A stretch of 64,000 nt of DNA, taken from contig JAZKCY010000001.1 in assembly GCA_040387855.1 (NCBI GenBank), positions 317,857 through 381,856 of the forward strand, given 5' to 3'. Below the pieces are notes generated by a model. It saw nothing but the letters and a program-made list of their open reading frames with translations. It was not told where the DNA came from and searched no databases. Source of the stretch: Patescibacteria group bacterium (GTDB lineage: Bacteria; Patescibacteriota; Minisyncoccia; Phycocordibacterales; JAKAEA01). A program made the translations under genes and the position numbers. This document shows, piece after piece, positions 5,460-61,183 of the stretch; the stretch's first letter is position 1; each line of letters begins with the position of its first letter.

Positions 5460-5530
5460 TTAGTATGGATATATTCTACCATGGATGACATTTCAAGAAA
5501 ATAAAAAAGCTCTGTCCAGATGGGCAGGGC

Positions 5531-5905
5531 TTATGCGGCTTCGACGACTTCATGTTGAAGCATAACCAGATCTATGTGTTTGTCCGCAGGCTGACCTGCC
5601 AGCAACTTGTTGATCTGGTAGCGAGCAAGCATGAGGCACGCATTCGGCAGGGACTGGTAGCAGTCCCATCTCAAGACCAGCGAATAGCAAAGGGTCTTGT
5701 CGCACGTGCACAGATGGGGCCACACGGTGGCGTCCATTTCCCAGGGCGGGGTCTTGGCAACTAGCTTCTGATCGTAGATCTGCTTGCTGCTTTGCCTGAG
5801 TACGTCCATGCATTGGGGAAGGAAGTCGTCGATGAGGAACCTCCTCCAGTCGTGGGACCTGCCGAGCATTGCCGCCAGATCCATAACTACTTGATTCGTA
5901 AGCAC
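5531..5905 (-). CDS. hypothetical protein encoded in a high-GC island
   Basis: 124-aa ORF, GGAGGTG upstream of start, island about 5520-5960 is about 60% GC against a 35% background; no recognisable domain. Confidence 0.3.
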   Translation of the reverse strand: MLTNQVVMDLAAMLGRSHDWRRFLIDDFLPQCMDVLRQSSKQIYDQKLVAKTPPWEMDATVWPHLCTCDKTLCYSLVLRWDCYQSLPNACLMLARYQINKLLAGQPADKHIDLVMLQHEVVEAA

Positions 5906-5995
5906 GTCACACCTCCGTGTGCTAGGGACAGGGACGTCGTTTATGAGTCACTACCACTAGTATATAAAGACGGATGAGTTCGGTCCAGCTTACAA

Positions 5996-6571
5996 TTAGA
6001 AAGGAAGGGTATGGGTGAGTGAACTTTCATCAATATCATCCCAATTATTTGTATCAAGTGGAATAGTAATTATTTTGCCAGCATCTTTATATTTAAGTTT
6101 GCTGTTTTTAAGTGCGTAGTCATACACCTTTTTTGTAATTTTCACGTCATCCAAACAGTACTGGCGAATTTTCTCAATTTCACCTTGCTTCCACCAGGTG
6201 ATAGCCTGTAAACCGTGCCCAGATTTATTAATATTTAAAGTTCCTTCAGCAATACTATCTAATTTAAATCTGCGTCCTGTAGCATTCTTAATTTCTTTAA
6301 GTAAATCCAAACTTTTTATTTTAGTAAGATCTCCAGGATAGTATTTATTGAGCAGAGGAATATCAAAATGATCAGAATTATATCCAATCAAAATATCTGC
6401 TTTTTCTATAATCGGCCACAATTGGTTTAACTCTTCTTGAAGGTAACTTGTATACTTATTTGTTTCAGAATCCCATACACCTACGAGGGAAAGATCAAGA
6501 AGGGTTGGATCATTTTTACCGACATCTGAAAACATATTTCGGGTTTCAATATCGAAAATAATTTTACGCAT
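5996..6571 (-). CDS. DEDDy-type 3'-5' exonuclease (RNase H-like fold, PolB-exonuclease-like)
   Basis: Exo I FDIET, Exo II YNSDHFDIPLL, Exo III YCLDDV motifs. Confidence 0.6.
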   Translation of the reverse strand: MRKIIFDIETRNMFSDVGKNDPTLLDLSLVGVWDSETNKYTSYLQEELNQLWPIIEKADILIGYNSDHFDIPLLNKYYPGDLTKIKSLDLLKEIKNATGRRFKLDSIAEGTLNINKSGHGLQAITWWKQGEIEKIRQYCLDDVKITKKVYDYALKNSKLKYKDAGKIITIPLDTNNWDDIDESSLTHTLPF

Positions 6572-6574
6572 ACG

Positions 6575-7897
6575 TTATGTTCGTTTTAGGTAATCAATAA
6601 TTTCTTGTTCGTTTGCGAAAGAAGCTTCTGTTTTAGTTGCCAATTCTTTTACAGTAAACTTTTTATCTTTAATCTCATTTTCGCCAATAACCATAATAAA
6701 CGGTATTGCATGCTTATCTGCCCATTTGATTTGATCTCCAACTTTTCTACCAGTGATATCTACTACAGCATTTATACCTTTGCTGCGAAGTGTTTGAGCT
6801 AGGTTTGATGTATATGCAAGTGAAGATTCATCAAATGGACAAAGTGCGATTTGGGTTTTAGAACTAAACTGGGGAAGTAAATTGTGAGTCTCAAGAAAAT
6901 CTCGAATAGTAACATCACCCATACCAAATCCTACTGCAGGAACCTTTTCTACATCAAATACAGCAAGTAATTCATCAAATCTTCCACCTCCAAAAAGTGA
7001 TCGTACATTTGCGGGATCTGTATCATTAACTTCAAATACTATTCCTGTATAGTAATCAAAACCACGAGCAAGGGTTGGATCAAAAACAGCATTTGTGATT
7101 CCAGCTGATGAGAGCTTTTCAAGGAGCTCTTTCGTTTCTGCAAAACCGTTGATTTCTTGTGATGTTTTGTCAGCTAAACGTTTTTGAAGTTCATCAATAT
7201 TCTGCGCATTGAGAGCTAGTACAAAATTATCTGTCTGATCATTCAAGATTTCTTGTATTTGATTTTTGAACTCATCTGCTGAGATCTTCTTTTTCTTATC
7301 TATGAGTTTTGTAATTCTGTATGCATCTTCTTCTTTGAGATTAAATGCATCATGTAATATAAAGTTGAGAATTTTTCTGTTGTTGATGCTTATTTTGAAA
7401 TCTCTTTCTTCTGCACCAAAATGTTTCATAACTGCATGAGCTGTAGAAATAATTTCTACTTCTGCATTAATACCACTAATTCCAAAGAGATCTACATTGA
7501 GTTGGTAGTGTTCTCGCAGACGTCCACGCTGTGGTTTTTCATATCTAAAAAGATTGGGAATAGAATACCATCGAAGAGGGAATGAAAGCTCTTTTCGTTT
7601 TGCTGCAACCATACGAGTTACTGTAGGTGTCATTTCTGGACGTAGTGTTACATCTCTGTCGCCTCTATCTTTGAAAGAGTATGTTTGTTCATTAACAATT
7701 TCTTCTCCAGACTTTGCTTTATACAGCTCGGTTGGTTCTAAAATAGATGCTGCATATTCTTCATAACCAAAGCTTTCAACTGCTTTACGCATAGTAGAGA
7801 AAATATGGTTTTGGATAAACATATCTTCAGGATAAAAGTCCCGAACACCTTTATATGGCTCCGTTCCAAGAGATTTCTTTGTGTTTTCGTCGTTCAT
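6575..7897 (-). CDS. hisS: histidine--tRNA ligase
   Basis: class II aaRS motifs (GVRDFYPEDM, RLREHYQ, GGGRFDEL), anticodon-binding C-terminal domain; track ORF extends to 7960 but the internal Met (MNDENTKK, at 7897) avoids overlap with truB. Confidence 0.85.
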   Translation of the reverse strand: MNDENTKKSLGTEPYKGVRDFYPEDMFIQNHIFSTMRKAVESFGYEEYAASILEPTELYKAKSGEEIVNEQTYSFKDRGDRDVTLRPEMTPTVTRMVAAKRKELSFPLRWYSIPNLFRYEKPQRGRLREHYQLNVDLFGISGINAEVEIISTAHAVMKHFGAEERDFKISINNRKILNFILHDAFNLKEEDAYRITKLIDKKKKISADEFKNQIQEILNDQTDNFVLALNAQNIDELQKRLADKTSQEINGFAETKELLEKLSSAGITNAVFDPTLARGFDYYTGIVFEVNDTDPANVRSLFGGGRFDELLAVFDVEKVPAVGFGMGDVTIRDFLETHNLLPQFSSKTQIALCPFDESSLAYTSNLAQTLRSKGINAVVDITGRKVGDQIKWADKHAIPFIMVIGENEIKDKKFTVKELATKTEASFANEQEIIDYLKRT

Positions 7898-7914
7898 GAG
7901 GTAGATTCTACCAT

Positions 7915-8637
7915 ATGGAACTAGTCTACAAAAGAAGAGGTCAAACGCCACTCCAAGCACTCGATGAACTACGGGGTCAAAAACTAGACTACAAAGATAC
8001 AGCTTTAAGTTATGCGGGGCGACTTGATCCTATGGCCGAGGGACTTATGCTTGTGCTCGTAGGGGAAGAAAATAAAGAACGTGAAAAGTATTTGAATCTT
8101 GATAAAGATTATGTAGTAGATATTTTGTTTGGGATTGAAACTGATACGTATGATGGATTGGGGAAGATATCTGAGATTAAAAATACTGAAATAGAAATAC
8201 TAAATCTGGATAAATATATAGGTAAGTTTGTTCAAGAATATCCACCATATTCATCAAAGCCTGTAAACGGAAAGCCCATGTTTGAATGGGCGAGAGAAGG
8301 TAAATTAGATGAAATAGAAATTCCTACGAAAAAAGTTGAAATATTTTCATGTGAAATTCTATCTAAGAATGTTATTTCAGGTAAAGAACTTATAGAAAAT
8401 GCAGAATTAGATAGCACTTTAATTACTGGTGATTTTAGACAAGAAGAAATTCTTAGTTCTTGGAAGAATGCATTAAAAGAACATGAGAGTAGTGTTTTTA
8501 GTGTGCTAAAAATAAAAGTTTCATGTTCAAGTGGTACGTATATGAGGAGTTTTGCTCATAACCTTGGCAAAGAATTATCGTGCGGTGCAATTGCATATCG
8601 TATTAAACGTACGAAAGTGGGGGAATGGGTAATCTAA
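7915..8637 (+). CDS. truB: tRNA pseudouridine(55) synthase TruB-like
   Basis: catalytic motif AGRLDPMAEGLMLVLVGEENK (TruB HxGTLDPxAxGxL signature), divergent from hisS. Confidence 0.7.
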   Translation: MELVYKRRGQTPLQALDELRGQKLDYKDTALSYAGRLDPMAEGLMLVLVGEENKEREKYLNLDKDYVVDILFGIETDTYDGLGKISEIKNTEIEILNLDKYIGKFVQEYPPYSSKPVNGKPMFEWAREGKLDEIEIPTKKVEIFSCEILSKNVISGKELIENAELDSTLITGDFRQEEILSSWKNALKEHESSVFSVLKIKVSCSSGTYMRSFAHNLGKELSCGAIAYRIKRTKVGEWVI

Positions 8638-8757
8638 GCTCATCCTTGCATTTTTATGGCCTCTTGATATATTAGAGCCAATCGTAAGGTTCTCGTTCGA
8701 TCCTAAGTAATTAGTAGAAGAGAGGTCGCATACGATGTAAGTTAACGTATAAAGGAT

Positions 8758-9054
8758 ATGTCAAAAAAATTGTACATTGGAGGAGTGTCATACAATACGA
8801 CACAGCAAGGCCTTCAGGAAGCTTTTGAGAAATTCGGAAAAGTTGTCTCTGCCCAGATCATTATGGACAAGATGACAGGACGATCTCGAGGTTTCGGTTT
8901 CATTGAAATTGAGGACGCAGATGCAGAAGCAGCAATCAACGGTATGAATGGTGCTACTCTCGACGGCCGAAAGCTCATTGTAAACGAAGCAAAGCCTATG
9001 GTTCCACGGGACCAGTATAAGCGAGCTCCAATGGGAGACCGACAGAGTTACTAA
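8758..9054 (+). CDS. RRM-domain RNA-binding protein
   Basis: RNP-2 LYIGGV and RNP-1 RGFGFIEI motifs, 98 aa. Confidence 0.8.
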   Translation: MSKKLYIGGVSYNTTQQGLQEAFEKFGKVVSAQIIMDKMTGRSRGFGFIEIEDADAEAAINGMNGATLDGRKLIVNEAKPMVPRDQYKRAPMGDRQSY

Positions 9055-9076
9055 ATTCTAAGGTTTTCTACAAAAC

Positions 9077-9114
9077 AAAAATCCCGAACCGAAAGGTGAG
9101 GGATTTTTGTTTGC
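9077..9114. terminator. bidirectional rho-independent terminator
   Basis: aaaaatccc-gaaccgaaaggtga-gggattttt hairpin with flanking A/T runs, between convergent genes. Confidence 0.6.
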
Positions 9115-9321
9115 TTAAATCAGACCTAATTTATTCTTTATAACTCGGTTATCATCTTCAAGATTAGTGATTCTTCGTTCTTGGCTTGAGGTGTTTTTCT
9201 CGACGGTTACTAATCTTGATTCTATTCGATCAAATCTTGCATCGACTTTATCAAATCGATCAGACATTTGGCCTGAAAGTGAATTTATAAGAGTTTCTAA
9301 TCTTTGAAATCCTTGTTCCAT
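9115..9321 (-). CDS. small coiled-coil hypothetical protein
   Basis: 68-aa ORF, heptad-like charged sequence; no known domain. Confidence 0.35.
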   Translation of the reverse strand: MEQGFQRLETLINSLSGQMSDRFDKVDARFDRIESRLVTVEKNTSSQERRITNLEDDNRVIKNKLGLI

Positions 9322-9392
9322 ATAGATCTATTTTATTCTTGTTAATGCTCCAAGTAAAGCACATCAAGATAAAATAAAACTGAAGTAGGGAA

Positions 9393-11180
9393 TTATAATT
9401 TTCCTTCTCGCTGCGCTTTATCTCGCATTGATTTGTTTAAGAATTTCTTTCGAAGTCGAACTGACTTTGGAGTAATTTCGATGTATTCATCATCTGACAT
9501 AATTTCCATGGCTCGTTCGATAGAGAGGATGTAGGCAGGAGCAAGATAGATACCTTCGTCTGATCCTGAAGCTCGCATGTTGGTGAGCTGCTTTCCTTTG
9601 GTTGGGTTTACATAAAGATCATCACCTTTTGTAACACTTCCGACAACCTGACCTTCATATACTTCATAACTTGGTTCTACATAGAGAGTTCCTCGCTGCT
9701 GAAGGTTGTCGAGAGAGAAGGCGAGACACTTTCCTTTCATCATTGAGATCATAGATCCGAATGTCTGTCGTTCCACTGTTCCAGCATATGCTCGGAATTC
9801 TAGGAATCGTGAAGAAATAATTCCTTCTCCCTTAGTATCTACAACGAACTGTCCTCGGTATCCGAGCAAACCTCGAGTTGGGATTTCAAATACCAATCGT
9901 ACCTGACCTCGCTCTTCGGTCATGTTCATCATGATTCCTCGTCGTCGCTGGAGCTTTTCAATAACAGCACTTGATGATTCTTGAGGAACGTCGATAGTTA
10001 CTTCTTCAAAAGGTTCTGATTTTACTCCATCAATTTCTTTGATGATAACTTGTGGTTGTGATACTTGGAGTTCATAACCTTCTCGTCGCATATTTTCAAG
10101 CAAGATCGCAATGTGCAATTCTCCTCGTCCGTATACTTTGTAATTTTCACCTGTAAAGTCTACTTTGAGTCCAACGTTGATTTCGAGTTCTCGTTCTAGT
10201 CGTTCTCGAATTTGTCGTCCTGTAACAAACTTTCCTTCTTGTCCGGCAAATGGAGAATCGTTAACCAAGAATGTAAGAGAGATAGTAGGTTCATCAATCT
10301 GAATAGCAGGAAGCGCTTCTTGATCCTGTGATTCACACACAGTGTCTCCAATATAGATATCAGGAATTCCGGCCATCATCACAATATCTCCAGCTTCGGC
10401 AATATCAGTTTCTGTTCGAGTTACACCTTTGAATGTAAATAGTTTAGTTAGCTTTCCAGAGTGAATAGTTCCATCTGGTGTTTTTGCAAAAATGTTTTGT
10501 CCCATTTTCATCTTACCTTCGTATACTCGGCCAACAGCAAGTCGTCCTAGGAAGTTGTCGTATCCAAGGTTGAACACCTGCATTCGAAGTGGAGCTTCTG
10601 TATCTGCTTGTGCTGCAGGAACTTTTTCTAAAATAAGATCAAGGAGGGGAGTAAGATCTTTTGATTCATCTTCCATCTTTAGCTTTGCAACTCCTTGTCG
10701 TCCGATAGCATAGATAGTTGTGAAATCGAGCTGATCGTCATTTGCTCCAAGTTCGAAGAATAATTCAAGAACTTGATCATGTGCACGCTTTACATCTGCA
10801 GCAGGTTTATCAATTTTATTTAAAACAACGATAGGCTTAAGACCAAGCTCGAGAGATTTCTTAAGTACGAATCGTGTCTGGGGCATAGGACCTTCCTGAG
10901 CATCCACTACAAGAAGCACGGTGTCGATAGATCGCAGCACACGTTCCACTTCAGAACCGAAGTCGGCGTGGCCCGGTGTGTCCACAATGTTGATCTTTGT
11001 ATTCTTATAGAATACTGACGTGTTCTTAGCGTAAATAGTAATACCTCGTTCCTGTTCAAGGGCGTTTGAGTCCATTGATATACCTTCTTCCACCATACCT
11101 GTCTGGCGCATCAAAGCATCAGTAAGAGTTGTCTTACCGTGGTCCACGTGCGCAATAATTGCAATATTTCGAATTTCCAT
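9393..11180 (-). CDS. typA: translational GTPase TypA/BipA
   Basis: G1 AIIAHVDHGKTTL, G3 DTPGHADF, G4 NKIDK, EF-G-like domain order, 595 aa. Confidence 0.9.
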   Translation of the reverse strand: MEIRNIAIIAHVDHGKTTLTDALMRQTGMVEEGISMDSNALEQERGITIYAKNTSVFYKNTKINIVDTPGHADFGSEVERVLRSIDTVLLVVDAQEGPMPQTRFVLKKSLELGLKPIVVLNKIDKPAADVKRAHDQVLELFFELGANDDQLDFTTIYAIGRQGVAKLKMEDESKDLTPLLDLILEKVPAAQADTEAPLRMQVFNLGYDNFLGRLAVGRVYEGKMKMGQNIFAKTPDGTIHSGKLTKLFTFKGVTRTETDIAEAGDIVMMAGIPDIYIGDTVCESQDQEALPAIQIDEPTISLTFLVNDSPFAGQEGKFVTGRQIRERLERELEINVGLKVDFTGENYKVYGRGELHIAILLENMRREGYELQVSQPQVIIKEIDGVKSEPFEEVTIDVPQESSSAVIEKLQRRRGIMMNMTEERGQVRLVFEIPTRGLLGYRGQFVVDTKGEGIISSRFLEFRAYAGTVERQTFGSMISMMKGKCLAFSLDNLQQRGTLYVEPSYEVYEGQVVGSVTKGDDLYVNPTKGKQLTNMRASGSDEGIYLAPAYILSIERAMEIMSDDEYIEITPKSVRLRKKFLNKSMRDKAQREGKL

Positions 11181-11267
11181 GTGTCTTCTAACCTTAAAAT
11201 GCCTATAAATAAAAAGAGAGCTCGAGCTCTAATTAGGCTATTATCATAATAAAAAAAGCCTCATGTG

Positions 11268-11435
11268 TCAAACATTTGGCTGATCGGGTTTCTTTGGTTC
11301 AGGTGCATTTCTTTCGAAGATGCCCAGTGAGCACAGAAAGAAGGCCGCAATAGCGATAAGGCCGCACACAGCGCTCAGAAGCTTCAACAAACTACGAGCT
11401 AGTTTTTGAACCCCCTTAGTTACTATTTGAGTCAT
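11268..11435 (-). CDS. small membrane protein (about 55 aa), not in ORF track
   Basis: manual translation MTQIVTKGVQKLARSLLKLLSAVCGLIAIAAFFLCSLGIF... with one TM helix; lies at the GC-elevated edge of the 11.2-12.2 kb island; coordinates approximate. Confidence 0.25.
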   Translation of the reverse strand: MTQIVTKGVQKLARSLLKLLSAVCGLIAIAAFFLCSLGIFERNAPEPKKPDQPNV

Positions 11436-11536
11436 ATTACCTCACGTTTGTACATAGGTTCGGGATAAGTATACCTGAAACCATGGTACGATTGAAATGG
11501 AACCATGCTCACCCAAATTACAAGAAAGGAGGCCGC

Positions 11537-12235
11537 ATGCGTCTACCACCATTGAAGCCGATAATTCGTCTGTTTACGTCTCGGCTTGGCGAAGTTGCTC
11601 GACGCTTGTTGCGTCCGCTCGTTACACTCGAAGAAGCAAAATCAATTCTTGGTGATCCATATGTCATCGATGCTGCTACAGCGGCATCGGTGTGGAATAT
11701 GGAGGTGCCTCATGACCTACCGATTCCATTTACCAAGAAGCGACTTATGCGTTGTGCAAAAGCAAATGCCAAAGGTGATAAATGGCGGCTCGTGTGTTGT
11801 TTGGGAATTTCAGTTCTCGACATGCACACCAAGCGGCCTGAAGATTTTTATCACTCGAGCATTTGGCAGCAACACGAACGACCGCAATGGATGTCGGAGC
11901 ACGATGCTCCGTGCTACATGCTCATCAACATGAAGCTTCGGCTTAGGGATGCGGGGAGGGAGCAAATGATGCGGTATTTGATGAACCGCAAAAGAGTGTA
12001 CGCCTGGGCTCACTTTCCTACAGTCGTTGAAACCATCGTTACGCTGACTCACAGCCAGCGAGAAACATGCCTTACTGATGGCATGCATGTAGACCTTACC
12101 GAAGGAGATACTATTCCAACGGTCCAGGTCTTCGACGACGGGGTCAACATCTCGACGACTAACAAAGATGTCGTCGCGATGGGAATCAACACAATGGGCA
12201 TAGTCTTGTGCATTATCCCTGAGTCGCTCTCGTAG
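11537..12235 (+). CDS. hypothetical protein encoded in a high-GC island
   Basis: track ORF 11483..12235; ATG at 11537 (MRLPPLKP) has a perfect AAGGAGG 5 nt upstream; about 52-55% GC; no recognisable domain. Confidence 0.45.
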   Translation: MRLPPLKPIIRLFTSRLGEVARRLLRPLVTLEEAKSILGDPYVIDAATAASVWNMEVPHDLPIPFTKKRLMRCAKANAKGDKWRLVCCLGISVLDMHTKRPEDFYHSSIWQQHERPQWMSEHDAPCYMLINMKLRLRDAGREQMMRYLMNRKRVYAWAHFPTVVETIVTLTHSQRETCLTDGMHVDLTEGDTIPTVQVFDDGVNISTTNKDVVAMGINTMGIVLCIIPESLS

Positions 12236-12262
12236 CTGCTTGGGTTTTTTTATTGCTAAAAA

Positions 12263-12297
12263 TGATCACACTATTTTTAAGCGTGATCATTTTTTAG
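12263..12297 (+). terminator. rho-independent terminator
   Basis: atgatcac-actatttttaagc-gtgatcat followed by tttttt. Confidence 0.6.
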
Positions 12298-12314
12298 TTT
12301 GTGTATCAAGTAAA

Positions 12315-12464
12315 TTAGATAACTCGTCGGCCCTGGATAAGTCGAACTGCGAAGACAATAACGGCAGCTACAAGAAGAAGGTGGACTAATCCGCCAACTG
12401 TTGGAAATCCGATAAAGCCTACAAGCCAAAGTACCAAAAGGATAATTGCAATTGTAGATAGCAT
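12315..12464 (-). CDS. small membrane protein (49 aa) resembling the lmo0937/DUF-type double-TM family, not in ORF track
   Basis: manual translation MLSTIAIILLVLWLVGFIGFPTVGGLVHLLLVAAVIVFAVRLIQGRRVI; coordinates approximate. Confidence 0.4.
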   Translation of the reverse strand: MLSTIAIILLVLWLVGFIGFPTVGGLVHLLLVAAVIVFAVRLIQGRRVI

Positions 12465-12610
12465 AAGCGAATGTGATTATTTCAATAACTACCGACCTTT
12501 ACTCAACTGTAGACGAAGCTCTGCTGCAGCTCTTACATTTGCTGAGCCTGCTCTAAGCAATAGCCGCGCTTTGAGCTTTTTTCACAAATGATAAAATTAC
12601 ACTTATATAT

Positions 12611-14035: not shown

Positions 14036-14081
14036 TATAAAAGTGATATAATATACATATTAAGTTAAGTATATAAATACT

Positions 14082-14411: not shown

Positions 14412-14482
14412 AAGAAATCCACACAAATGAGTGATCATACGTGTGATATAGTAAAGCTATGCGACGAGCATAGCTTTATTAT

Positions 14483-16165: not shown

Positions 16166-16307
16166 TCGTAGCTTCATTAGTTGCTCATCCTTGACTTATC
16201 CACAGATTTTCAGTCTGCTATTGACGAATTTTTTAATAGGAGTAAGCTAGTATCTGGCTTCGTACCAATCGGGTTCTCAGATTTCTTGTTTTTCTCGGAG
16301 GTATTGC

Positions 16308-16925: not shown

Positions 16926-16935
16926 TTCCAATGGG

Positions 16936-51639: not shown

Positions 51640-54285
51640 ATGAAAAAGTTACATATATATTTACTTATAGCAGCACTACTTATTGGTAGTGTTGTTGTCG
51701 TTGGTATGATGATTGAAAAAAACAATCGTCTACCTGCTGCGGTTAGTCAATCCAGCATATCCAACACAACTCAGCGGGTTACTCAATTTATGCTGATAAA
51801 TGCTGATAATGATCAGGCAATTACTTCAATTACTAATAACTCAGTAATAAATCTTGCTACATTACCTACAAAGAACTTAAATATTGAGGTAATTACTAAT
51901 CCTGCTACTGTGGGCAGCGTTAGGTTCTCATATGACCAATATTCAGGATACAAGCTTCAAGATATCCCACCATATGCTATTGGAGGAAGTTCAACGAGTA
52001 GAGATTTCTATAGTTGGAATCTTACCGAAGGATCACATACCCTTAAAGTTACTCCATATACTGGTAAGGGAGGAACAGGTACAGCGGGAAGTCCTCTTAC
52101 TGTAGAATTTTCTGTAATCAATCAAGTTCAACAAGCTACAATTCAAAGTCTTGAACTCTACAACACTGACTATAATGCACCAACTAAATTTTTTACTCCC
52201 ATTACTGATGGCACCGTAATTGATTTAACTAAACTTACAACTAAAAATCTTACAATTAAGGCTAATCCATCTGCTGATACTTCTATTGTTCAATTTGATT
52301 TGGATGGAAAATTAAAATTTGGATATGAAACTGGTGCACCGTATTTTATGGCTGGAGATAATACTTCAAACTGGCCCTATGCATGGAATCCAACATTAGG
52401 TTCACATACAGTAGTGGTAACTCCATTTAAGCGAGTAAATGGATCACTCGTTGCGGGAGTTCCTAAAACAATTCGATTTTCTGTAATCAATCCAGCCCCA
52501 GTAGTTGTTGTACCAACTATGTCACTTGCAGCTCCTACGAGTATTACTTCAGGAGGGAATATTACATTGTCGTGGACATCTACAAACACTACGTCATGTG
52601 TAGCCTCAGGTGATTGGACAAATACTCAAGGTCCATCTGGAACCATTACATTCTCAGGAATTACTCAAGCAAAAACATTTACGTTAACGTGTACTGGTGC
52701 AGGAGGTAATGTTTCAAAGACTGTATCTGTAGCGGTAACTGAAGTAGTTGTGCCTCCCACTCCACCCACACCACCAACTCCGCCTACACCTCCCACTCCT
52801 CCAGATATAACCCCACCAGACACAACACCTGTTGTTGGGTATACGGATATAACACCTAAATTTGATTCTAAAATTGTATATGTATCATCATCACTAGGAA
52901 GTGATAGTAACGATGGATCACTTGGCGCACCGGTACAGTCGGTATCAAAAGCTATGACTATGATACGAAGTGGTTATCCAGATCAGATACTTCTAAAACG
53001 AGGAGATAGTTGGAGTGGAGAAATTACAAACTATATTACATCACTCTACAATCCAATCTCAGGTAGATCTGCATCAGACAGATTGGTAATTAGTTCATAT
53101 GGCACAGGAAGTAGACCAAAAGTATCTTCAAATACCAACGGAGTCACTCTAGGTCATGGTACAAAACATATTGCTATTGTTGGAATCCATTTCGTCGGGA
53201 ATTTTAAGGATGATGCAATACGACTTGAAGGTACTTCTGTTGGTGGTGAAAATATTCTTATTGAAGATTGCTACATAGAAAAGTTTGCAAAGGGAATTAC
53301 TATCTCAGTTGCCCAGCCATATTCTCAAGTAACACAACAGAATTCACCTAATCTCATAAAGAATGTTGCTATTCGACGTAATGTTGTCGTTGATGTATTT
53401 AGTACTGTTGATGCGCAAGGGAATCTAGAACACCCTGAAGGAACATATTTTTATGGTATTAACGGCATACTTGTAGAAGATAATATATTTGATAACAACG
53501 GACGGCGGGCAAACGGAACAGGAGGTACAATCTTCGGACATGCAGTTTATATTACAGGTAGAAACTGGAACTCAGTTGTGCGAAATAATATATTCTCAAA
53601 TGCAGCAAGTGATGCTCTTCAAGCTCGTGCTGGAGGAATAGTAGAAAACAACTTCTTCTACAATAATCCAATTCACCTTTCTTTTGGATATGTAAATGGA
53701 GGAGGACCACAACATTTAGGCGGTGTTCGAGGAACCGTTAAGAATAATGTGATGATTGGTACTCGTATTGTAGATGCGGGAGGACCAAATGTATCTGGTC
53801 CAGTAAATGGTAAACGAGGTCAAGCATTGGTAATGGCAAACATTGCTGAGGCTGTTGTAGAAAAAAATATTATTGCGTTTAATACACTGTCGACAAATCG
53901 TGCTGCTATTATTCTTGAGCCTGGATCTGGTGAATATGCAGCAGATGCAATAGGTATTCATAATCTTATGATACGAGATAATATTGTGTATCAATATCCT
54001 ACTGCCTTTACAATTAATAGTCTTGGACTTGTTGGACTTGGCCGATACTCAGCAAGTAATATTGTATTACGAGGAAATCATCTTTCAGGTCTAGTTAAAG
54101 TAAGTTCTGCATATACTACTCCAGATGGACCATTTAATGCTCCTATTGAAGTGAGTCCAAATCTCAGTTCAAATTATGATTCATTTATTTTAGAAGCACG
54201 TAGTCAATCTAAAACAAATTGGCGATCTCAGTTTACTGCAACTGCAATCAACAATCAGGTGCGGAGCTTAATGTATTTCAAATAA
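51640..54285 (+). CDS. large cell-surface protein: N-terminal anchor, two tandem about 115-aa beta-sandwich repeats, Ig-like domain, Pro-Thr linker, C-terminal right-handed parallel beta-helix (pectin-lyase-fold) domain
   Basis: internal tandem repeat (…NLNIEVITNPATVGSVRFSYD… / …NLTIKANPSADTSIVQFDLD…), linker PTPPTPPTPPTPPTPP, beta-helix NNIFSNAASDALQARAGGIVENNFFYNN; ATG at 51640 (track start 51616 is GTG). Confidence 0.6.
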   Translation: MKKLHIYLLIAALLIGSVVVVGMMIEKNNRLPAAVSQSSISNTTQRVTQFMLINADNDQAITSITNNSVINLATLPTKNLNIEVITNPATVGSVRFSYDQYSGYKLQDIPPYAIGGSSTSRDFYSWNLTEGSHTLKVTPYTGKGGTGTAGSPLTVEFSVINQVQQATIQSLELYNTDYNAPTKFFTPITDGTVIDLTKLTTKNLTIKANPSADTSIVQFDLDGKLKFGYETGAPYFMAGDNTSNWPYAWNPTLGSHTVVVTPFKRVNGSLVAGVPKTIRFSVINPAPVVVVPTMSLAAPTSITSGGNITLSWTSTNTTSCVASGDWTNTQGPSGTITFSGITQAKTFTLTCTGAGGNVSKTVSVAVTEVVVPPTPPTPPTPPTPPTPPDITPPDTTPVVGYTDITPKFDSKIVYVSSSLGSDSNDGSLGAPVQSVSKAMTMIRSGYPDQILLKRGDSWSGEITNYITSLYNPISGRSASDRLVISSYGTGSRPKVSSNTNGVTLGHGTKHIAIVGIHFVGNFKDDAIRLEGTSVGGENILIEDCYIEKFAKGITISVAQPYSQVTQQNSPNLIKNVAIRRNVVVDVFSTVDAQGNLEHPEGTYFYGINGILVEDNIFDNNGRRANGTGGTIFGHAVYITGRNWNSVVRNNIFSNAASDALQARAGGIVENNFFYNNPIHLSFGYVNGGGPQHLGGVRGTVKNNVMIGTRIVDAGGPNVSGPVNGKRGQALVMANIAEAVVEKNIIAFNTLSTNRAAIILEPGSGEYAADAIGIHNLMIRDNIVYQYPTAFTINSLGLVGLGRYSASNIVLRGNHLSGLVKVSSAYTTPDGPFNAPIEVSPNLSSNYDSFILEARSQSKTNWRSQFTATAINNQVRSLMYFK

Positions 54286-54293
54286 AAAACACC

Positions 54294-54803
54294 TCAAGGA
54301 ACTTGATCCTTGGGTGCATTATCAGACAAAGGATTTGCCTTTGTCTGATTTTGTTGTGGGGAACTACTTGGGTAGCAGAGGAAAATTGCAGCAACTATCG
54401 CTGCAGAAAATCCCACTGCTTGCATCCATGTGATTCCGCGGTTGACGATGATCGAATAGATCGCCGGTGGGCATGTTTGGGCGACGAGCATCACTACAAA
54501 AAGAATACCCACTTTTGCAGGCATAGCTTCGGATAGCAATGTGTTGAAGATCACCACGCCTCCGGTTGCGATCACTGCAGCAATGATGGTCATTGTCCAG
54601 TTGGCACGGTAGAGCGAACTTGTATCCATCAGTGCCGGAGTGATCAAGAGCGTAAGCTGAATACAGCTCACAACCACACACGTTACAAATCCAGATAGAT
54701 TGCTCTTGTTCATGAACAATGGCCAGATGCCGAAGAGCAATCCCGCTGCGATGGCCATGATTTGATGTTTCATCTCCACAGACTCCACAAAGACTCGGAA
54801 CAT
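54294..54803 (-). CDS. small 4-5-TM membrane protein, intermediate GC
   Basis: hydrophobic ORF; about 48% GC, higher than the flanks; overlapping alternative-frame ORF 54364..54843 considered less likely. Confidence 0.35.
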   Translation of the reverse strand: MFRVFVESVEMKHQIMAIAAGLLFGIWPLFMNKSNLSGFVTCVVVSCIQLTLLITPALMDTSSLYRANWTMTIIAAVIATGGVVIFNTLLSEAMPAKVGILFVVMLVAQTCPPAIYSIIVNRGITWMQAVGFSAAIVAAIFLCYPSSSPQQNQTKANPLSDNAPKDQVP

Positions 54804-54872
54804 GACGCTCAGCGTAAATTACCACTATGAAGTAGTTTGTCAATTAACACATAATGCTATACTTATGTATAT

Positions 54873-55343: not shown

Positions 55344-55355
55344 AAATCTAAAGTA

Positions 55356-55382
55356 AAAAACCACCCTATGGTGGTTTTTTAC
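55356..55382 (+). terminator. rho-independent terminator
   Basis: aaccacc-ctat-ggtggtt followed by tttttt. Confidence 0.65.
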
Positions 55383-55405
55383 TTCTCAACTCCTACAACA
55401 TCTTG

Positions 55406-57033: not shown

Positions 57034-57087
57034 TTAGTTGAATAATATACTATATGAGTTTTTATGTCAAATAAAAAACCGACATGG

Positions 57088-57852
57088 TCAGAGGATCTGA
57101 TTCATGCCGGCAACGGTGATCTTGAGGTTTTCGTACAGCCCGGGCACACCAACTGTGCTGTAGGATTGGCCATCTGGAGCAATGAACACGAGGTCACAGT
57201 CGCATACGAGCTCATTGCAGCCCGGGCAGGTTTGGTAGCGATCAAACACCTCCTGCTCGAGATCGATACCACGCACGTATGCGAGCGTGAGTAGCCAGCT
57301 GAGTACATCTGCAGCTTCGAGCTCAGACTGGTGATCTGCCATACCACCACGAAGAGGTGTATGTGGGCCTCTCGACTGGATGATGCTCAGTTCACCGACT
57401 TCGCTTACGAGCCTGCCGTAGATCTTCCAGAACTTGTCGCCCTGAAGGTGTCGCCAGCCGTAGACGGTCTTGAGGTGCTCTTGCCACCGTCTCAACGTCC
57501 AGCCGCGCTGCTCATCATGCAGCTTGTAATCCTTTGGGTCGGGACGGGTTGCATCATTGCAGTCGCAGGGCATGTGCGTGCAGTACAAGCAGCCATACGG
57601 CGGGAACTTGTACATCATCCCGCGCTCAAGGTCGACGCGACCATTGAAGAAATTGACTACGTTGTAGAAGTAGCTGACACTTCTCGCAAGTCGTCCGGGC
57701 AGGCGCTCGCTTTTCCGCTCCGCATCAGCGATCTTGCCGACGCGGTAGATCATATGGCCTGCACGTTCCGGGAACGAACCTCCGGTGTGTTGAACACGAC
57801 GGTTGTACATCCGGTTGAAATGGTTCTGCAGTCCGAGAATGGTGGTTTCCAT
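57088..57852 (-). CDS. Cys-rich protein with C-terminal MazG-like nucleotide pyrophosphohydrolase motifs, encoded in a high-GC island
   Basis: LVSEVGELSII and ELEAADVLSWLLTLAYVRGIDLEQEV match the MazG E-x-x-E-x-G-E-L / E-x-x-D-x-L pattern; CxxC pairs CLYCTHMPCDC and CPGCNELVCDC; about 60% GC. Confidence 0.4.
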   Translation of the reverse strand: METTILGLQNHFNRMYNRRVQHTGGSFPERAGHMIYRVGKIADAERKSERLPGRLARSVSYFYNVVNFFNGRVDLERGMMYKFPPYGCLYCTHMPCDCNDATRPDPKDYKLHDEQRGWTLRRWQEHLKTVYGWRHLQGDKFWKIYGRLVSEVGELSIIQSRGPHTPLRGGMADHQSELEAADVLSWLLTLAYVRGIDLEQEVFDRYQTCPGCNELVCDCDLVFIAPDGQSYSTVGVPGLYENLKITVAGMNQIL

Positions 57853-57917
57853 GTGACGCGCTCCTACGTGGTGTTGTGGTCGTAGTACAGAAGAACGACG
57901 ATCGTTCTGTCGCTATA

Positions 57918-58721
57918 CTATTGCTGTGGGTACCAATTTGCAAGTACTACTTCAATATTTGAGTCTCCAGTATTTACAAGTGTTTTAAATTTAGCCACAT
58001 CTGCTAATCCATCTTGTCCGCGGTAGTGGTAGGGATATACGATCTTTGGTTTGAATGCGAGCACTGCTTGAGCTGCATCTTCAACACCCATAGTGAATGG
58101 AAGATTCATAGGAACAAATGCCATATCAATATCAGTGAGTGCTTTCATTTCTGGAGTTGGTCCGGTATCACCAGCAACATACACTCGGTAGCCATCTCGC
58201 TCAATTATGTATCCATTGCCTCGGCCTTTTGTATGTCTGCTATCTGTTGCTTCAGGATAGTTATACATAGGTACTGCGGTAATAGTGAAACCTTGTTCTG
58301 TTCGTGTCTGACCATTGTTCATTACAACTGCTCGTGATTTAAGATTTGCAGGAAGCAAATCAACTACTGCTTTTGGTGCGATAAGTGTAGAGCTGCCAAC
58401 GATAGTATTTAATGTACTGGTACTTAAGTGATCTCCATGGATATCAGTTACAAGAATGATATTTGGTGGTTGAATTCCTTGAAAGTTTGCTGCGCCACCC
58501 GTTGGATCCAAAAAGATATTTTTATTTGCCCAAGTGAGAACTCCGGTTGCATGTGAAAGCGGAATCACTGTTACAGGAACATTTTGTTGCTGTGTATTTC
58601 CTGTCTGATTGGTTGAGGTTGCTAACGGTTGAGTCCCATCTGTTGTTGTAGTTCTATTTAAAAGTGAAAACAAGGCGATTATTATAATAATTACTAAAAT
58701 TATGGGTATGATTCTTTTCAT
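57918..58721 (-). CDS. secreted MBL-fold metallo-hydrolase
   Basis: N-terminal TM/signal, HxHxDH motif in ILVTDIHGDHLS. Confidence 0.7.
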   Translation of the reverse strand: MKRIIPIILVIIIIIALFSLLNRTTTTDGTQPLATSTNQTGNTQQQNVPVTVIPLSHATGVLTWANKNIFLDPTGGAANFQGIQPPNIILVTDIHGDHLSTSTLNTIVGSSTLIAPKAVVDLLPANLKSRAVVMNNGQTRTEQGFTITAVPMYNYPEATDSRHTKGRGNGYIIERDGYRVYVAGDTGPTPEMKALTDIDMAFVPMNLPFTMGVEDAAQAVLAFKPKIVYPYHYRGQDGLADVAKFKTLVNTGDSNIEVVLANWYPQQ

Positions 58722-58799: not shown

Positions 58800-58826
58800 A
58801 AAAAAACCGTGTCGAAACACGGGTGT
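58800..58826 (-). terminator. rho-independent terminator (minus strand) after the high-GC gene 58859..59371
   Basis: ccgtgt-cgaa-acacgg hairpin with T-run on the minus strand (the plus strand shows the preceding A-run). Confidence 0.55.
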
Positions 58827-58858
58827 CATGAAATCTACGACAAGAACTGATGGTGCAC

Positions 58859-59371
58859 TTACGGCTTGATCCACACCGCAGTGGACTCTGCTGAGATCGT
58901 CGTTGATGTGCTACCAGTGGAGCTCACGGTTATGCGAACTCCCTGGCCGGTCACGCTGTAGACGCCACCTCTTTGGAAACCGCTAATGCTCTTGCTAACC
59001 GTGGTGTCGGTCGAGTAGACCTTGAACGTGGCAAGTGCCACTTGGCGCATAGTGCCAGTGGTTTGCTGTTGGCGGATCACCAGCCGAGTATGTGTGGCCC
59101 GAGGACCACTTGGGTTGATGGTGTAGGTGAACTTCACCGTCGCCGCACCCGTAAGCGTATTACGGGCGACGATCTGCCGCTGCAGGTAGAGCGGTGGTTG
59201 TACCCGCGTTACCGAGGTTGTGGTCACCGCTCTAAGGTTGTAGGTGTAAGCAGCCTGTGCCACCGAGTCGAGAATCGATGTCGCGCCTCCACCGAGGCCA
59301 ACCGACATCACAGTACGATTTTCGAGACATTCAACATACGGAAGCATGAAACGTAGTCCTTCTGCATGCAA
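58859..59371 (-). CDS. secreted Thr/Ser-rich protein with N-terminal LENR motif, encoded in a high-GC island
   Basis: TTG start; N-terminus MLPYVECLENRTVMSVGLGGG shares the LExRxxxS motif with the RTX-like paralogs; beta-rich TxT repeats; about 60% GC. Confidence 0.4.
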   Translation of the reverse strand: MHAEGLRFMLPYVECLENRTVMSVGLGGGATSILDSVAQAAYTYNLRAVTTTSVTRVQPPLYLQRQIVARNTLTGAATVKFTYTINPSGPRATHTRLVIRQQQTTGTMRQVALATFKVYSTDTTVSKSISGFQRGGVYSVTGQGVRITVSSTGSTSTTISAESTAVWIKP

Positions 59372-59439
59372 ACGAAAAGGAGCAGCCGTGCTCCTTGTTC
59401 ATCTGCGGGAACTGAACCGAACGGTACAATACCAAAAAA

Positions 59440-59628
59440 TCAGGAAAATCTCAAGCCTTCTTTTTTAAGTGCAGCTCGCAAGAGTGGAAGTGAACCTGGT
59501 CCCATGCCGTGAAGAGCTAAGATTTCTTTTTCAGAATATCTTGAGAGTTTTTTGAGGGAATCTATACCAGCATTAAGTAATGCTCTTTGTGCTGGTGCAG
59601 AAAGTTTTATTTGACTAATTTCTTTCAT
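59440..59628 (-). CDS. small helix-hairpin-helix (HhH) domain protein
   Basis: LHGMGPGSLPLLRAALK (GhG hairpin) in a 62-aa ORF. Confidence 0.4.
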   Translation of the reverse strand: MKEISQIKLSAPAQRALLNAGIDSLKKLSRYSEKEILALHGMGPGSLPLLRAALKKEGLRFS

Positions 59629-59635
59629 AAGCTAA

Positions 59636-60019
59636 TTACATAAATACAAAATATGCAGCAATAATAATTGCTGCTTGTGCGAGTACATACGTAGTATCAG
59701 TAATAATTGCATACTTACTTTTACCTGAGAAAAGACTTGTTGCTTTAATGAATACTGCGACCATACACACAATGAGAATGGCAAATGGTAGGGAAAGAAC
59801 AAGGGCGAGATTCAAAACCCATGCAAATAAAATAGTTCCTAATCCTTGTGACAAAAGAATTAATCCAAGAGGTCGGCCGGGAACAGCTGGTGTACCCATG
59901 CCTGCACGCCATTTGTTTCCAAACATTTTTGGTGAAAACCATAATGATCCAAGTGAGAAAGCAATAAAAGCCCCTATAATAACTGACAACCAATTTATAT
60001 TAGTTAGAAGTGATTCCAT
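59636..60019 (-). CDS. small 4-TM membrane protein (DUF1761-like)
   Basis: 127-aa hydrophobic ORF NINWLSVIIGAFIAFSLGSLWFSPKMFGNKW. Confidence 0.45.
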   Translation of the reverse strand: MESLLTNINWLSVIIGAFIAFSLGSLWFSPKMFGNKWRAGMGTPAVPGRPLGLILLSQGLGTILFAWVLNLALVLSLPFAILIVCMVAVFIKATSLFSGKSKYAIITDTTYVLAQAAIIIAAYFVFM

Positions 60020-60100
60020 AAAAATATTTATTAAATGATATTTAAAGTATAGCAGAGTTAGAATAATCTAGCATAAAAAAAACGCATACAGCCAGGAAGT

Positions 60101-60259
60101 TTACTTGGTCGGTATATGCGTTGGGGGATTGCGTGGTGTTTGCGGGACGCGGTATTCTTTGCCGCAATAGATACACCACATCTGCTTGCCGCGCGTATGT
60201 TCGTCTACAGACTGGGTTTTGACGCAGCGCGGATTGGGACAATAGAGTTTCACGGGCAT
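60101..60259 (-). CDS. 52-aa zinc-ribbon protein encoded in a high-GC micro-island, not in ORF track
   Basis: manual translation MPVKLYCPNPRCVKTQSVDEHTRGKQMWCIYCGKEYRVPQTPRNPPTHIPTK (CxxxxC ... CxxC); AAGGAG 7 nt upstream of ATG; preferred over the overlapping 91-aa track ORF 60042..60317. Confidence 0.3.
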   Translation of the reverse strand: MPVKLYCPNPRCVKTQSVDEHTRGKQMWCIYCGKEYRVPQTPRNPPTHIPTK

Positions 60260-60431
60260 GGTTGGCTCCTTTCACTCTACCTATCCATAATGGTACAGCT
60301 ATTTGGCATTTATACAACGGATAACATGAATATTGTATTAAAAATATAAATGGAAAACCCGCCGACGATACAGCTGACGGAGGGTTTCCATCGGCCGCTT
60401 TGTGGCGGGGTGTGTGAGGTACTTGTGAAGG

Positions 60432-61088
60432 TCATCGACGACGGCGACGAGCGAGAAGTCCTATGCCAGCGAGTCCTGTTAGTGCAACGGATCCTGGCTC
60501 AGGCGCTTGGGTCAGCACGAAGGTCTTGATCTCGACGTGGGAAGCTGGACCGCGGAGGTCGAAGTGGTAGACCGCGGTGAGTGTGCCGTTCGAGCTTTTG
60601 CTCAGACTTCCGATGGCATTGTCGACGAGGCCTGATGACAGAGTAAACTGCACCATGCCCACATCGAGTTGGCCCATCGAATCGTTGATGTGATCGAGAT
60701 CGATGGCACCGGCAAACGTTGCCGGTGTACCATGGGTTTCGCTGAACGGCAGGGTCTGCGTGCTTGCGCTTCGCATCGAGCGGATGTCTCGACCGGTCAT
60801 CTTCACATCCACCGAGTACGTGTAGTACTCCTTTTGTTGGTATGTGATTTCCACGAGATCGATCGTCGCACTCGTTATGAGTCGAGCCGCGAGCGATCCT
60901 GTTGAGGGATCGATCGAGTACTGCTGCGAGATGATTCCAGAGTCGATCGTCATGACCGTCTGGGAATCGGACTTGATCCCGGACGCGCTCAAGGGGTTGA
61001 GGGTGATGAGCGAAGCCTGCGTGGCCGAGCTCAGGGAGAGAATGGCCACGATGAATGCGAGAGCGGACTTCATTGAGAATCCCTTCAC
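60432..61088 (-). CDS. PEP-CTERM sorting-signal secreted protein (exosortase substrate type), encoded in a high-GC island
   Basis: signal peptide MKSALAFIVAILSLSSATQA; C-terminus PEPGSVALTGLAGIGLLARRRRR (PEP motif + TM + Arg cluster); about 60% GC. Confidence 0.6.
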   Translation of the reverse strand: MKGFSMKSALAFIVAILSLSSATQASLITLNPLSASGIKSDSQTVMTIDSGIISQQYSIDPSTGSLAARLITSATIDLVEITYQQKEYYTYSVDVKMTGRDIRSMRSASTQTLPFSETHGTPATFAGAIDLDHINDSMGQLDVGMVQFTLSSGLVDNAIGSLSKSSNGTLTAVYHFDLRGPASHVEIKTFVLTQAPEPGSVALTGLAGIGLLARRRRR

Positions 61089-61183
61089 GATTTCACTGCT
61101 ACATTGCTTGGGGCACTATGCCTTTCACAATAGCTGAGTCTGTGTGTATTATATCATATTTAGGTAAAAAGTCAATATTTAAT

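Follow-up and report, generated by a model that had tools for sequence, protein, structure and literature searches.

GC-Rich Transcription Units of One or Two Genes Interspersed in the AT-Rich Chromosome of a Patescibacteria Bacterium

We analyzed a 64-kb stretch of the genome of a Patescibacteria group bacterium (contig JAZKCY010000001.1, positions 317,857 to 381,856; the window hereafter), in which short islands of GC-rich DNA, nearly all holding a single gene, interrupt AT-rich sequence. The window is ordinary chromosome of a member of the Patescibacteria (candidate phyla radiation, CPR) with a genome of about 1 Mb and 37% GC; the GC content of the whole 64 kb is 40.4%. A profile in 400-bp steps (n = 160) gives 0.38 as the median GC, with a robust standard deviation of 0.044, and 10 of the 160 values exceed the median by more than five robust standard deviations, the maximum being 0.66. 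Two-state GC segmentation returned 11 high-GC segments totaling 9,692 bp, or 15.1% of the window, with a mean GC of 0.597 versus 0.370 in the remainder. The segments lie at 5509-5939, 11528-12244, 16335-16848, 19803-22544, 33064-33911, 34078-35238, 35409-36375, 47760-48128, 57106-57882, 58852-59306, and 60358-61068. An initial annotation, made from the sequence alone, had described such a two-state mosaic; it is borne out, and all 11 segments coincide with open reading frames (ORFs) listed there as islands.

Background ORFs have a GC content of 0.33-0.42 and a GC content at third codon positions (GC3) of 0.17-0.32 (background GC3, 0.25), compared with 0.54-0.64 and 0.60-0.94, respectively, for the clear island ORFs. 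Three ORFs (1058-1459, 54294-54803, and 11537-12235) are intermediate, with GC 0.48-0.50 and GC3 0.49-0.54, and a small ORF of 52 codons at 60101-60259 has a GC3 of 0.60. In total there are 15 GC-rich ORFs in 14 units (GC 0.48-0.64, GC3 0.49-0.94); the units measure 0.2-2.9 kb, occur about once per 4.6 kb, and stand 20-25 percentage points of GC above their surroundings. These values temper the initial annotation in places: its 58-65% GC for the islands is too high for several of them (54-57%), and 11537-12235, counted there as an island, belongs with the intermediates. Long antisense ORFs, said to be found only inside islands, are indeed concentrated there (24 of 32 shadow ORFs of at least 100 amino acids) but are not confined to them.

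The edges of the islands resemble the edges of transcripts, as judged from consensus scans, by which all promoters and terminators given here were predicted. The GC switch had been placed a few bases at most from the start and stop codons; instead, the 5' change-point lies 9-90 nt upstream of the start, in six units 1-11 nt past a hexamer resembling a -10 box, and the 3' change-point usually lies 8-99 nt past the stop, in eight units at the first T of the T-run of a terminator. The leaders (9-90 nt, about 50% GC) are followed by a Shine-Dalgarno (SD) site, and in four of them a stable hairpin begins with the first GC-rich nucleotide (z, -2.2 to -4.6). Promoters of the sigma-70 type, or sites resembling them, occur upstream of all units; four match at least 10 of 12 consensus positions, and promoters of that quality are at least as frequent in the units as among host genes. 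A hairpin with a T-run follows 10-12 of the 14 units, the terminators named in the initial annotation being present, and host genes use the same kind of terminator. Since the GC switch falls just past the -10 box and at the T-run, each island is, on these predicted signals, a complete transcription unit from promoter to terminator. With its own promoter, SD site, and terminator, such a unit can be expressed, and is insulated, without disturbing its neighbors.

The length of the GC-rich noncoding flank is correlated with GC3 (Spearman 0.70, p = 0.008): flanks are 183 and 130 nt long in the islands of highest GC3, versus 8-25 nt in those of lowest GC3. The expectation that normal horizontal transfer carries foreign intergenic DNA along with the gene is therefore satisfied in part, in that the islands of highest GC3 keep 130-183 nt of GC-rich flank, which shrinks as GC3 falls. 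The sequence T6-7ATT follows the terminators of 8 of 13 units, and the 9-mer occurs 18 times compared with 3.4 expected. As a signature of junctions or insertion it was rejected: it also follows island terminators in relatives and is sometimes merely a T-run abutting the next host promoter. We regard it as a local terminator style.

Three adjacent units on the forward strand encode proteins with RTX repeats (promoters are written below as hexamer-spacer-hexamer). The first, 33029-34004, encodes a 266-amino-acid protein (33132-33932, GC3 0.77; HemolysinCabind, 5.8e-13) with the N-terminal motif YIESLENRSHLS; its promoter TTGCTA-17-TATAGT lies at 33029-33057, GC rises 6 nt past the -10 box, and a terminator with T6ATT is found at 33996. 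The second, 34038-35250, has the highest GC3 of all (0.94) and encodes a 325-amino-acid protein (34162-35139) whose homologues match at the level of the repeats only, the best with 27% identity. Its GC-rich 5' and 3' untranslated regions (UTRs) measure 84 and 99 nt, its promoter TTGACT-17-TATTAT matches the consensus at 11 of 12 positions, and its boundaries lie 11 nt past the -10 box and where the terminator stem ends. The third, 35273-36462, encodes a 310-amino-acid protein (35403-36335, GC3 0.88; HemolysinCabind, 1.6e-17) behind the promoter TTGCCA-17-TATTTT, with a GC rise 11 nt past the -10 box, a 5'-terminal hairpin, and a terminator of -22.5 kcal/mol. All three score 42.6-63.5 bits against PF00353 (cutoff 23), which places them among RTX-repeat proteins. 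The initial annotation called them paralogs; the repeats are confirmed, but similarity among the three is at the level of the repeats only, 28-40% over 84-163 amino acids. No type I secretion genes were found in the window, which is 64 kb of a 981-kb genome.

The one island with two genes (19733-22657, reverse strand) carries ORFs 20614-22473 and 19814-20581, with a 32-nt GC-rich spacer containing an SD site between them, one promoter (TTGACA-16-CATAAT at 22657), and one terminator (a hairpin of -15 kcal/mol followed by T7ATT at 19733). A 5'-terminal hairpin of -17.2 kcal/mol (z = -4.6) is predicted. The first gene encodes a Pro-rich protein of 619 amino acids (GC3 0.78) with one transmembrane helix and a short Fn3-like N-terminus, and the second a lipoprotein-like, Gly/Asn-rich protein of 255 amino acids (GC3 0.66). 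An AT-rich hairpin with T6ATT (cctcttttttatttccc...gggagaaaagagg) at 22555-22615, on the same strand, lies between the promoter and the GC-rich start of the unit; it could be an attenuator or leader structure and has no Rfam match.

Two further units lie on the forward strand. Unit 16294-16962 encodes a 205-amino-acid protein (16308-16925, GC 0.58, GC3 0.74) distantly similar to beta-carbonic anhydrases (Pro_CA_2, PF20393, 32.9 bits, cutoff 30), with a weak fold match to PDB 1ddz (E = 0.0014), and ends in a terminator at 16933-16954 with T6ATT. The intermediate unit 11528-12254 has an ORF of 232-250 amino acids (11537-12235 or 11483-12235; GC 0.50, GC3 0.54), and a T7 run begins 9 nt past its stop codon.

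The remaining units are on the reverse strand. The intermediate unit 947-1536, between rpoD and the gene for a UvrD/PD-(D/E)XK protein, holds ORF 1058-1459 (133 amino acids, GC 0.48, GC3 0.49), which found no match in Pfam and PHROG searches; its promoter TTGACT-17-TACTAT lies at 1536, and a hairpin of -13.7 kcal/mol with T9 lies 102 nt past the stop. Unit 5500-5987 holds ORF 5531-5905 (124 amino acids, GC 0.55, GC3 0.71; segment 5509-5939) between an RNaseH-like gene (5996-6571) and a DsbA-like gene (4605-5459); the promoter TGGACC-17-TATACT spans 5987-5959, and the 3' GC boundary falls exactly at the T-run 5500-5508. Unit 47748-48223, between a helicase gene and fur, holds ORF 47768-48145 (125 amino acids, GC 0.54, GC3 0.60), whose product forms a singleton cluster. 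Its promoter TTGCGT-16-TACTAT begins 4 nt past the stop of the upstream helicase gene, and a 6-bp hairpin overlapping its own stop codon precedes T6ATT at 47748. The intermediate unit 54281-54843 encodes a multi-pass membrane protein (54294-54803, 169 amino acids, GC 0.48, GC3 0.52), with the promoter TTGACA-16-TAATTT, a GC rise 1 nt past the -10 box, an 11-nt leader, and T6ATT at 54281.

Unit 57070-57943 encodes a 254-amino-acid protein (57088-57852, GC 0.56, GC3 0.67) that is weakly MazG-like with Cys-rich ribbons (PDB 1vmg, E = 0.007); AlphaFold2 run without an alignment gave a predicted local distance difference test score of 34, too low to be informative. GC-rich DNA begins 4 nt past the upstream host stop codon, a -10-like TAGTAT overlaps the stop of 57918-58721, and T6ATT at 57070 abuts the -35 box of the next host promoter. 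Unit 58800-59454 encodes a 170-amino-acid protein (58859-59371, GC 0.56, GC3 0.62) with the N-terminal motif YVECLENRTVMS; its GC-rich DNA begins 16 nt past the stop of host ORF 59440-59628, and a hairpin with T7 lies at 58800. The small unit 60095-60330 encodes a 52-amino-acid zinc-ribbon peptide (60101-60259, GC3 0.60; CPNPRC...CIYC) with a weak IBR match. Unit 60340-61175 encodes a 218-amino-acid protein (60432-61088, GC 0.57, GC3 0.68) with a signal peptide and a PEP-CTERM tail (PF07589, 21.9 bits, cutoff 20.7; TIGR02595, 24.6 bits, cutoff 16); its promoter, TTGACT-16-TATAAT at 61175, is a perfect 12/12, and a GC-rich 3' UTR of 74 nt extends to the T-run. No exosortase (EpsH/XrtA) gene was found in this 64 kb of the 981-kb genome. 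About half of the island products are predicted to be secreted or at the surface (three RTX, one PEP-CTERM, one lipoprotein, and membrane-anchored or multi-pass proteins), which suggests that their roles are accessory ones at the cell surface. For island proteins other than the RTX and PEP-CTERM ones, searches of PHROGs, PADLOC, and NCBIfam yielded no functional assignment, and those without a similarity noted above match nothing in Pfam either.

The chromosome around the islands encodes RpoD (sigma-70), a UvrD/PD-(D/E)XK helicase-nuclease, a DsbA-like protein, HisRS, TruB, an RRM protein, TypA, an exonuclease/GIY-YIG protein, an Na+/H+ exchanger, SulP, ClpP, glycogen-metabolism enzymes (glgA), MutL, MutS, two-component systems, and Fur. 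No tRNA, transfer-messenger RNA, or Rfam family was found in the 64-kb window; domain searches among its genes found no integrase, transposase, recombinase, or reverse transcriptase; and there are no phage genes near the islands, whose proteins have no PHROG matches. The RRM_1-domain protein is a stand-alone protein of 98 amino acids (8758-9054, forward strand), and a 62-amino-acid host protein (59440-59628, reverse strand) resembles the C-terminal domain of the RNA polymerase alpha subunit. Bidirectional terminators, each a GC hairpin between A-runs and T-runs, separate two convergent pairs of host genes at 18696-18726 (SulP/ClpP) and 55344-55405 (DUF305/55406-55894). Two reverse-strand ORFs, for a ZIP transporter and a Zn-peptidase (43809-44831 and 44668-45480), overlap by 164 nt; the start of the transporter is probably further downstream.

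The islands differ from the host genes in more than GC content. Codon preference is inverted (ATC 0.84 versus 0.18, AAG 0.88 versus 0.31, islands versus host), with C- and G-ending codons dominating in the islands; the GC enrichment extends to first and second codon positions; and island proteins contain more Gly, Pro, and Val and less Lys, Ile, and Glu. TGA is the stop codon of 6 of 14 island genes but of only 1 of 32 host genes, which otherwise use TAA (23) and TAG (8). Host ORFs are intact under translation table 11, and the scarcity of TGA among them is avoidance, not obvious recoding. Shifts in codon, amino-acid, and stop usage take long to evolve, indicating that the island genes evolved in GC-rich genomes rather than having been kept GC-rich in place.

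Searches for a donor found none with the proteins queried. Among 5.8 billion clustered proteins there is no full-length homologue of either the 619- or the 254-amino-acid protein, and an exhaustive HMMER search of 1.84 billion representatives with the former returned only a 35-residue Fn3-like stretch. An RTX protein (P0005) matches others via its repeats only, mostly in Alphaproteobacteria and cyanobacteria; P0011 was considered as the best RTX homologue and rejected, the similarity being confined to repeats. Seven island proteins were found in the protein collection, all seven as singleton clusters, and tblastn of two island proteins against plasmids found nothing. Two otherwise unrelated island proteins share the motif Y[IV]E.LENR..[LM]S (YIESLENRSHLS at 33132-33170 and YVECLENRTVMS at 59330-59347; 8 of 12 positions identical), with looser versions (EKMEGRTLF, ETLESLQYMS) in the two other RTX proteins; it may be a sorting or propeptide signal brought from the donor. 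Searched against Pfam with E values as high as 10, four N-termini, including those with the LENR motif, match no family, and the resemblance of LENR-type N-termini to those of planctomycetes finds no support in that search. The initial annotation raised a donor among the Planctomycetes or Verrucomicrobia; no homologue or N-terminal family points there, and GC3 forms an unbroken range between 0.94 and 0.49. The PEP-CTERM and RTX features suggest diderm bacteria as the source of some islands at least, without pointing to a named phylum, and we infer that the donors are GC-rich lineages outside current databases.

Relatives were sought with TypA, which retrieved 80 metagenome loci at 65-74% identity (1.01 Mb scanned); a metagenome scan with the SulP protein found no relatives. 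The closest relative in the genome collection, a metagenome-assembled genome (MAG) of Candidatus Saccharibacteria (L001; MutS, 67% identity), keeps only the mutS-mutL order and is uninformative on the RTX site. In the metagenome relatives (designated L036 to L090 below) the order typA, (RRM), truB, hisS, RNaseH-like, dsbA, further genes, rpoD is partly kept. The gap between the RNaseH-like gene and dsbA is an empty 44 bp in L044 and L045, compared with 536 bp in the window, where it holds island 5531-5905; the conserved dsbA -10 box (TAGAAT) resumes directly past the T-run of that island. L036, which is the nearest relative for this block, has another gene in that gap, of 153 amino acids (13563-14209, GC 0.44) and with its own promoter and terminator. 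Its product appears histidine-phosphatase-like by eye; a Pfam search gave no match. Near typA, several relatives have a HisRS-like gene of about 255 amino acids (L036, 12223-12993; L045, 7620-8387; L044, L046, and L082) that matches two pieces of the 461-amino-acid HisRS of the window at 65-70% identity and could be a truncated paralogue or reflect frameshifts or Ns in the contigs.

GC-rich segments make up 1.6% of the relatives' 1.01 Mb (three are 23S rRNA) compared with 15.1% of the window, and 24 of 1002 ORFs exceed the GC median of their locus by 0.12 or more, compared with 11 of 62 in the window (odds ratio 8.8, p = 1.5e-6). Like units are thus some 7-10 times rarer in relatives. They were found in L039/L040 (GC3 0.88), L045, L075, L079, L084, and L090, in each case as a consensus promoter, a GC-rich transcript, and a terminator; 8 of 10 tested belong to no Pfam family. 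In L045, an AT-rich IS200-like Y1 transposase gene (11985-12626, reverse strand; PF01797, E = 1e-9) adjoins the GC-rich island 11326-11763. The 18.4-kb locus L075 (TypA, 68% identity) is a dense mosaic in its own right, with three to five GC-rich single-gene units (GC 0.53-0.58 versus 0.38); its candidates, at 735-1133, 3444-3785, 9381-9881, 14235-15017, and 15376-15891, have consensus promoters and T-run terminators and match no Pfam family. Such units therefore recur within this section of the Patescibacteria, and in the present genome they are unusually dense.

The island proteins exactly match NCBI entries MES2436730-774 (locus tags V4519_018xx-020xx) on a 981,549-bp MAG contig, and a second assembly was available in Logan, which assembles run by run with a different assembler (run SRR26324620). 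Contig SRR26324620_154029 (25,798 bp) is identical to window positions 6308-21106 and contig SRR26324620_119711 (62,458 bp) to 23896-42986, with 0 mismatches over the 33.9 kb shared. Exact look-ups with several proteins of the window had no record to match, and direct confirmation covers those two intervals, the 62,458-bp size of the latter contig only implying that it reaches the end of the window. Islands 11537, 16308, 19814/20614 (in part), 33132, 34162, and 35403 lie within these contigs together with their junctions: 154029 contains an identical ORF 11537-12235, the junctions of unit 16294-16962, and the 3' junction and part of the two-gene island 19733-22657, and 119711 contains an identical ORF 33132-33932 and the other two RTX units. 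A dozen joins between unrelated genomes are not possible for a de Bruijn assembler unless the genomes have k-mers in common, and, with identical contigs running across the islands, a chimeric or artificial origin is very unlikely; the islands are real parts of the chromosome rather than assembly errors.

The first explanations to be weighed are those that would make the mosaic an artifact, both of which the initial annotation had raised. Stitching of GC-rich fragments of other organisms into a CPR contig, by chimeric assembly or contaminated binning, would fit the extreme compositional contrast, the singleton status of the islands in the protein database, and the fact that the organism is known from one run only. 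Yet 34 kb with 12 junctions came out of an independent assembler without a mismatch, the inserts are all intergenic with intact neighbors and correctly oriented promoter and terminator, and the same architecture occurs in unrelated metagenome assemblies; two identical Logan contigs across six islands, and like units in independent JGI and ENA contigs, lead us to set this explanation aside as extremely unlikely. The modular layout of promoter, leader hairpin, SD site, coding sequence, and terminator does look designed, but a deposited MAG and an independently made assembly of a public run both contain the sequence, and natural relatives from JGI and ENA metagenomes carry the same units and a conserved gene order, so that the chance of a synthetic or artificially composed sequence is negligible. 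A third possibility is that the genes are native and that their high GC is maintained in place, for example for a stable, nuclease-resistant mRNA or by biased gene conversion. The coincidence of the GC-rich domain with the transcribed region, the good promoters and terminators, which suggest well-integrated genes, and the failure to find donors would all agree with this, but first and second codon positions and amino acids are also shifted, as after long evolution at high GC, stop-codon usage is foreign, the genes are absent from all relatives (with one site empty there), and conversion partners in the form of extra copies are lacking; we consider it very improbable.

Among explanations that accept a foreign origin, a single donor for all islands, the bacterial host of an episymbiont (Planctomycetes/Verrucomicrobia-like, or Actinobacteria as for Saccharibacteria), draws on the diderm character of the PEP-CTERM tail and RTX repeats, on the LENR motif common to two island proteins, which resembles planctomycete N-termini, and on the dominance of C-ending codons in all islands. 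It is nevertheless unlikely, given that the island proteins searched have no homologues in sampled genomes, including the well-sampled Actinobacteria and the same run, that the LENR motif matches no Pfam model, and that GC3 spans 0.49-0.94. In addition, a relative was detected for one island family only, and it is an AT-rich, native-looking gene of another Patescibacterium: ORF 816-1247 of L047 encodes 142 amino acids (GC 0.35, GC3 0.26) with 26% identity over 136 amino acids to the protein of 16308-16925, indicating that this family is not foreign to the phylum. Alternatively, the units could be captured RNA, that is, foreign mRNAs reverse-transcribed from their start to the U-tract of the terminator and then integrated. 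The GC-rich DNA begins at about the transcription start and ends at the terminator T-run, hairpins stand at nucleotide 1 of the GC-rich segment, and target-site duplications, terminal repeats, and transposase were not found in the window, all of which would fit such capture. However, the window encodes no reverse transcriptase, promoters would have to pre-exist at every site, and selection retaining promoter, gene, and terminator predicts the same boundaries; we know of no precedent for such capture and find the idea most improbable. The broader proposal that some Patescibacteria lineages possess a regular and perhaps dedicated route for installing GC-rich coding sequences, foreign or newly made in some other way, as transcript-shaped units (for instance by reverse-transcribing and integrating mRNAs taken from the cells on which they live) is also very improbable; if it held, products without relatives would come from an unsampled partner or virus, and the islands would be a readable record of the partners of a symbiont.

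We favor, with a probability of about 0.7, repeated horizontal gain of single-gene units, resembling the morons of phages (see below), from unsampled GC-rich donors, the units now being at different stages of compositional decay. Of the suggestion that single genes were captured repeatedly from one donor, the repeated capture of foreign units would thus stand and the single donor would not. Some 14 foreign transcription units (0.2-2.9 kb, 15 ORFs) would have been inserted singly into intergenic gaps, the DNA entering by uptake and being joined by illegitimate end-joining. Only units that were expressed and harmless to their neighbors would have been retained, nonfunctional foreign flanks being deleted or decaying toward the AT-richness of the host, and the GC3 series from 0.94 to 0.49 would represent either an age series or a mixture of donors. 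The ends of the islands share no sequence or repeat, attC-like or IS-like; target-site duplications do not exceed chance (longest flank repeats 6.4 versus 6.0 nt); and no island promoter region is a duplicate of another host region.

Several observations weigh against repeated gain of foreign units. The three adjacent RTX genes are separated by stretches of only about 75 bp, whose 25% GC looks host-like; GC-rich Patescibacteria relatives have an intergenic GC of 0.48-0.57, so that block transfer would look different; and the rapid acquisition of good host-style promoters by very fresh units is left unexplained. An empty site was seen for one island only, gene order having been lost in relatives elsewhere. 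The searches with the 619-amino-acid, 254-amino-acid, and RTX proteins found no donor, in a database that includes proteins from the same run, which is awkward for very recent transfer (GC3 0.94) from a donor in the same sample and argues against an abundant donor there. Finally, both assemblies were built from the same read set, and the evidence for contiguity is assembly-level.

CPR genomes are viewed as streamlined and as having gained few genes recently from beyond their own phylum. In the present window, 15% of the 64 kb would be foreign, barely decayed DNA in a dozen or more independent, ready-to-express units, whose products mostly lack known relatives and are often predicted to lie at the surface; this suggests that gene gain in reduced CPR bacteria proceeds unit by unit, in the way that phages pick up morons. 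Should the rest of the genome and the related genomes prove alike in this respect, moron-like accretion would be an important means of gene gain for these symbionts, the inserts might be used to trace donors or hosts by composition, and contamination tools that flag compositional outliers in MAGs would wrongly discard real genes. The set of units, from fresh to half-decayed, would also offer a natural series for the gain of promoters and loss of flanks by foreign genes.

No description of this pattern came up in literature searches, nor did any paper mentioning run SRR26324620, but several known systems share features with it. Classical genomic islands likewise have atypical composition and accessory cargo that often encodes surface proteins; the present units, of 0.2-2.9 kb, differ from these and from integrative elements in lacking a tRNA target, integrase, flanking direct repeats, and multigene structure. 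Integron cassettes, too, are modules of one gene, bounded at the gene edges and able to form a hairpin at the 3' end; the units, however, lie dispersed over 60 kb, each with a promoter of its own, and share no attC-like sequence, with no intI in the window. Transposons, insertion sequences, and miniature inverted-repeat transposable elements were considered and rejected: conserved ends, terminal inverted repeats, target-site duplications, and transposase are all absent in the window. Single-stranded DNA elements of the IS200/IS605 type (palindrome-associated transposable elements, PATEs) have hairpins near both ends and no terminal inverted repeats or target-site duplication, as here, and a Y1 transposase gene stands beside the island of one relative (L045). 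Unlike in PATEs, the hairpin sequences all differ within and between units, and the window has no Y1 transposase and no conserved target motif.

A survey of Patescibacteria reported horizontal transfer of individual genes and genomic islets, mostly within the phylum, at 3.9-34.5% sequence divergence and not recent (PMC12455944), and found no unique transferred genes (PMC12455944). The survey contains no account of the present pattern. The units described here differ from those transfers in being barely decayed and GC-rich, in lacking an identifiable donor, and in making up 15% of the window. The closest parallel is with phage morons, a concept of Hendrix and Juhala, which are one to a few genes lying between genes that are adjacent in relatives, with their own promoter and terminator and deviant GC content (PMC2920897); at hot spots different cargo can occupy the same site, and the mechanism of insertion is not known (PMC2920897). 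Island 5531-5905 similarly lies between genes that are adjacent (44 bp) in L044 and L045, at a site filled differently in L036; the units have their own predicted promoter and factor-independent terminator; and their composition deviates (GC 0.48-0.64 versus 0.37, GC3 0.49-0.94 versus 0.25). They differ from morons in residing in a housekeeping chromosome rather than in a phage or prophage, in their very high density, and in a GC contrast far above the usual. Judged by these sequence features, the units are not members of the class by definition, but they appear to behave functionally as morons, with three of the four defining features.

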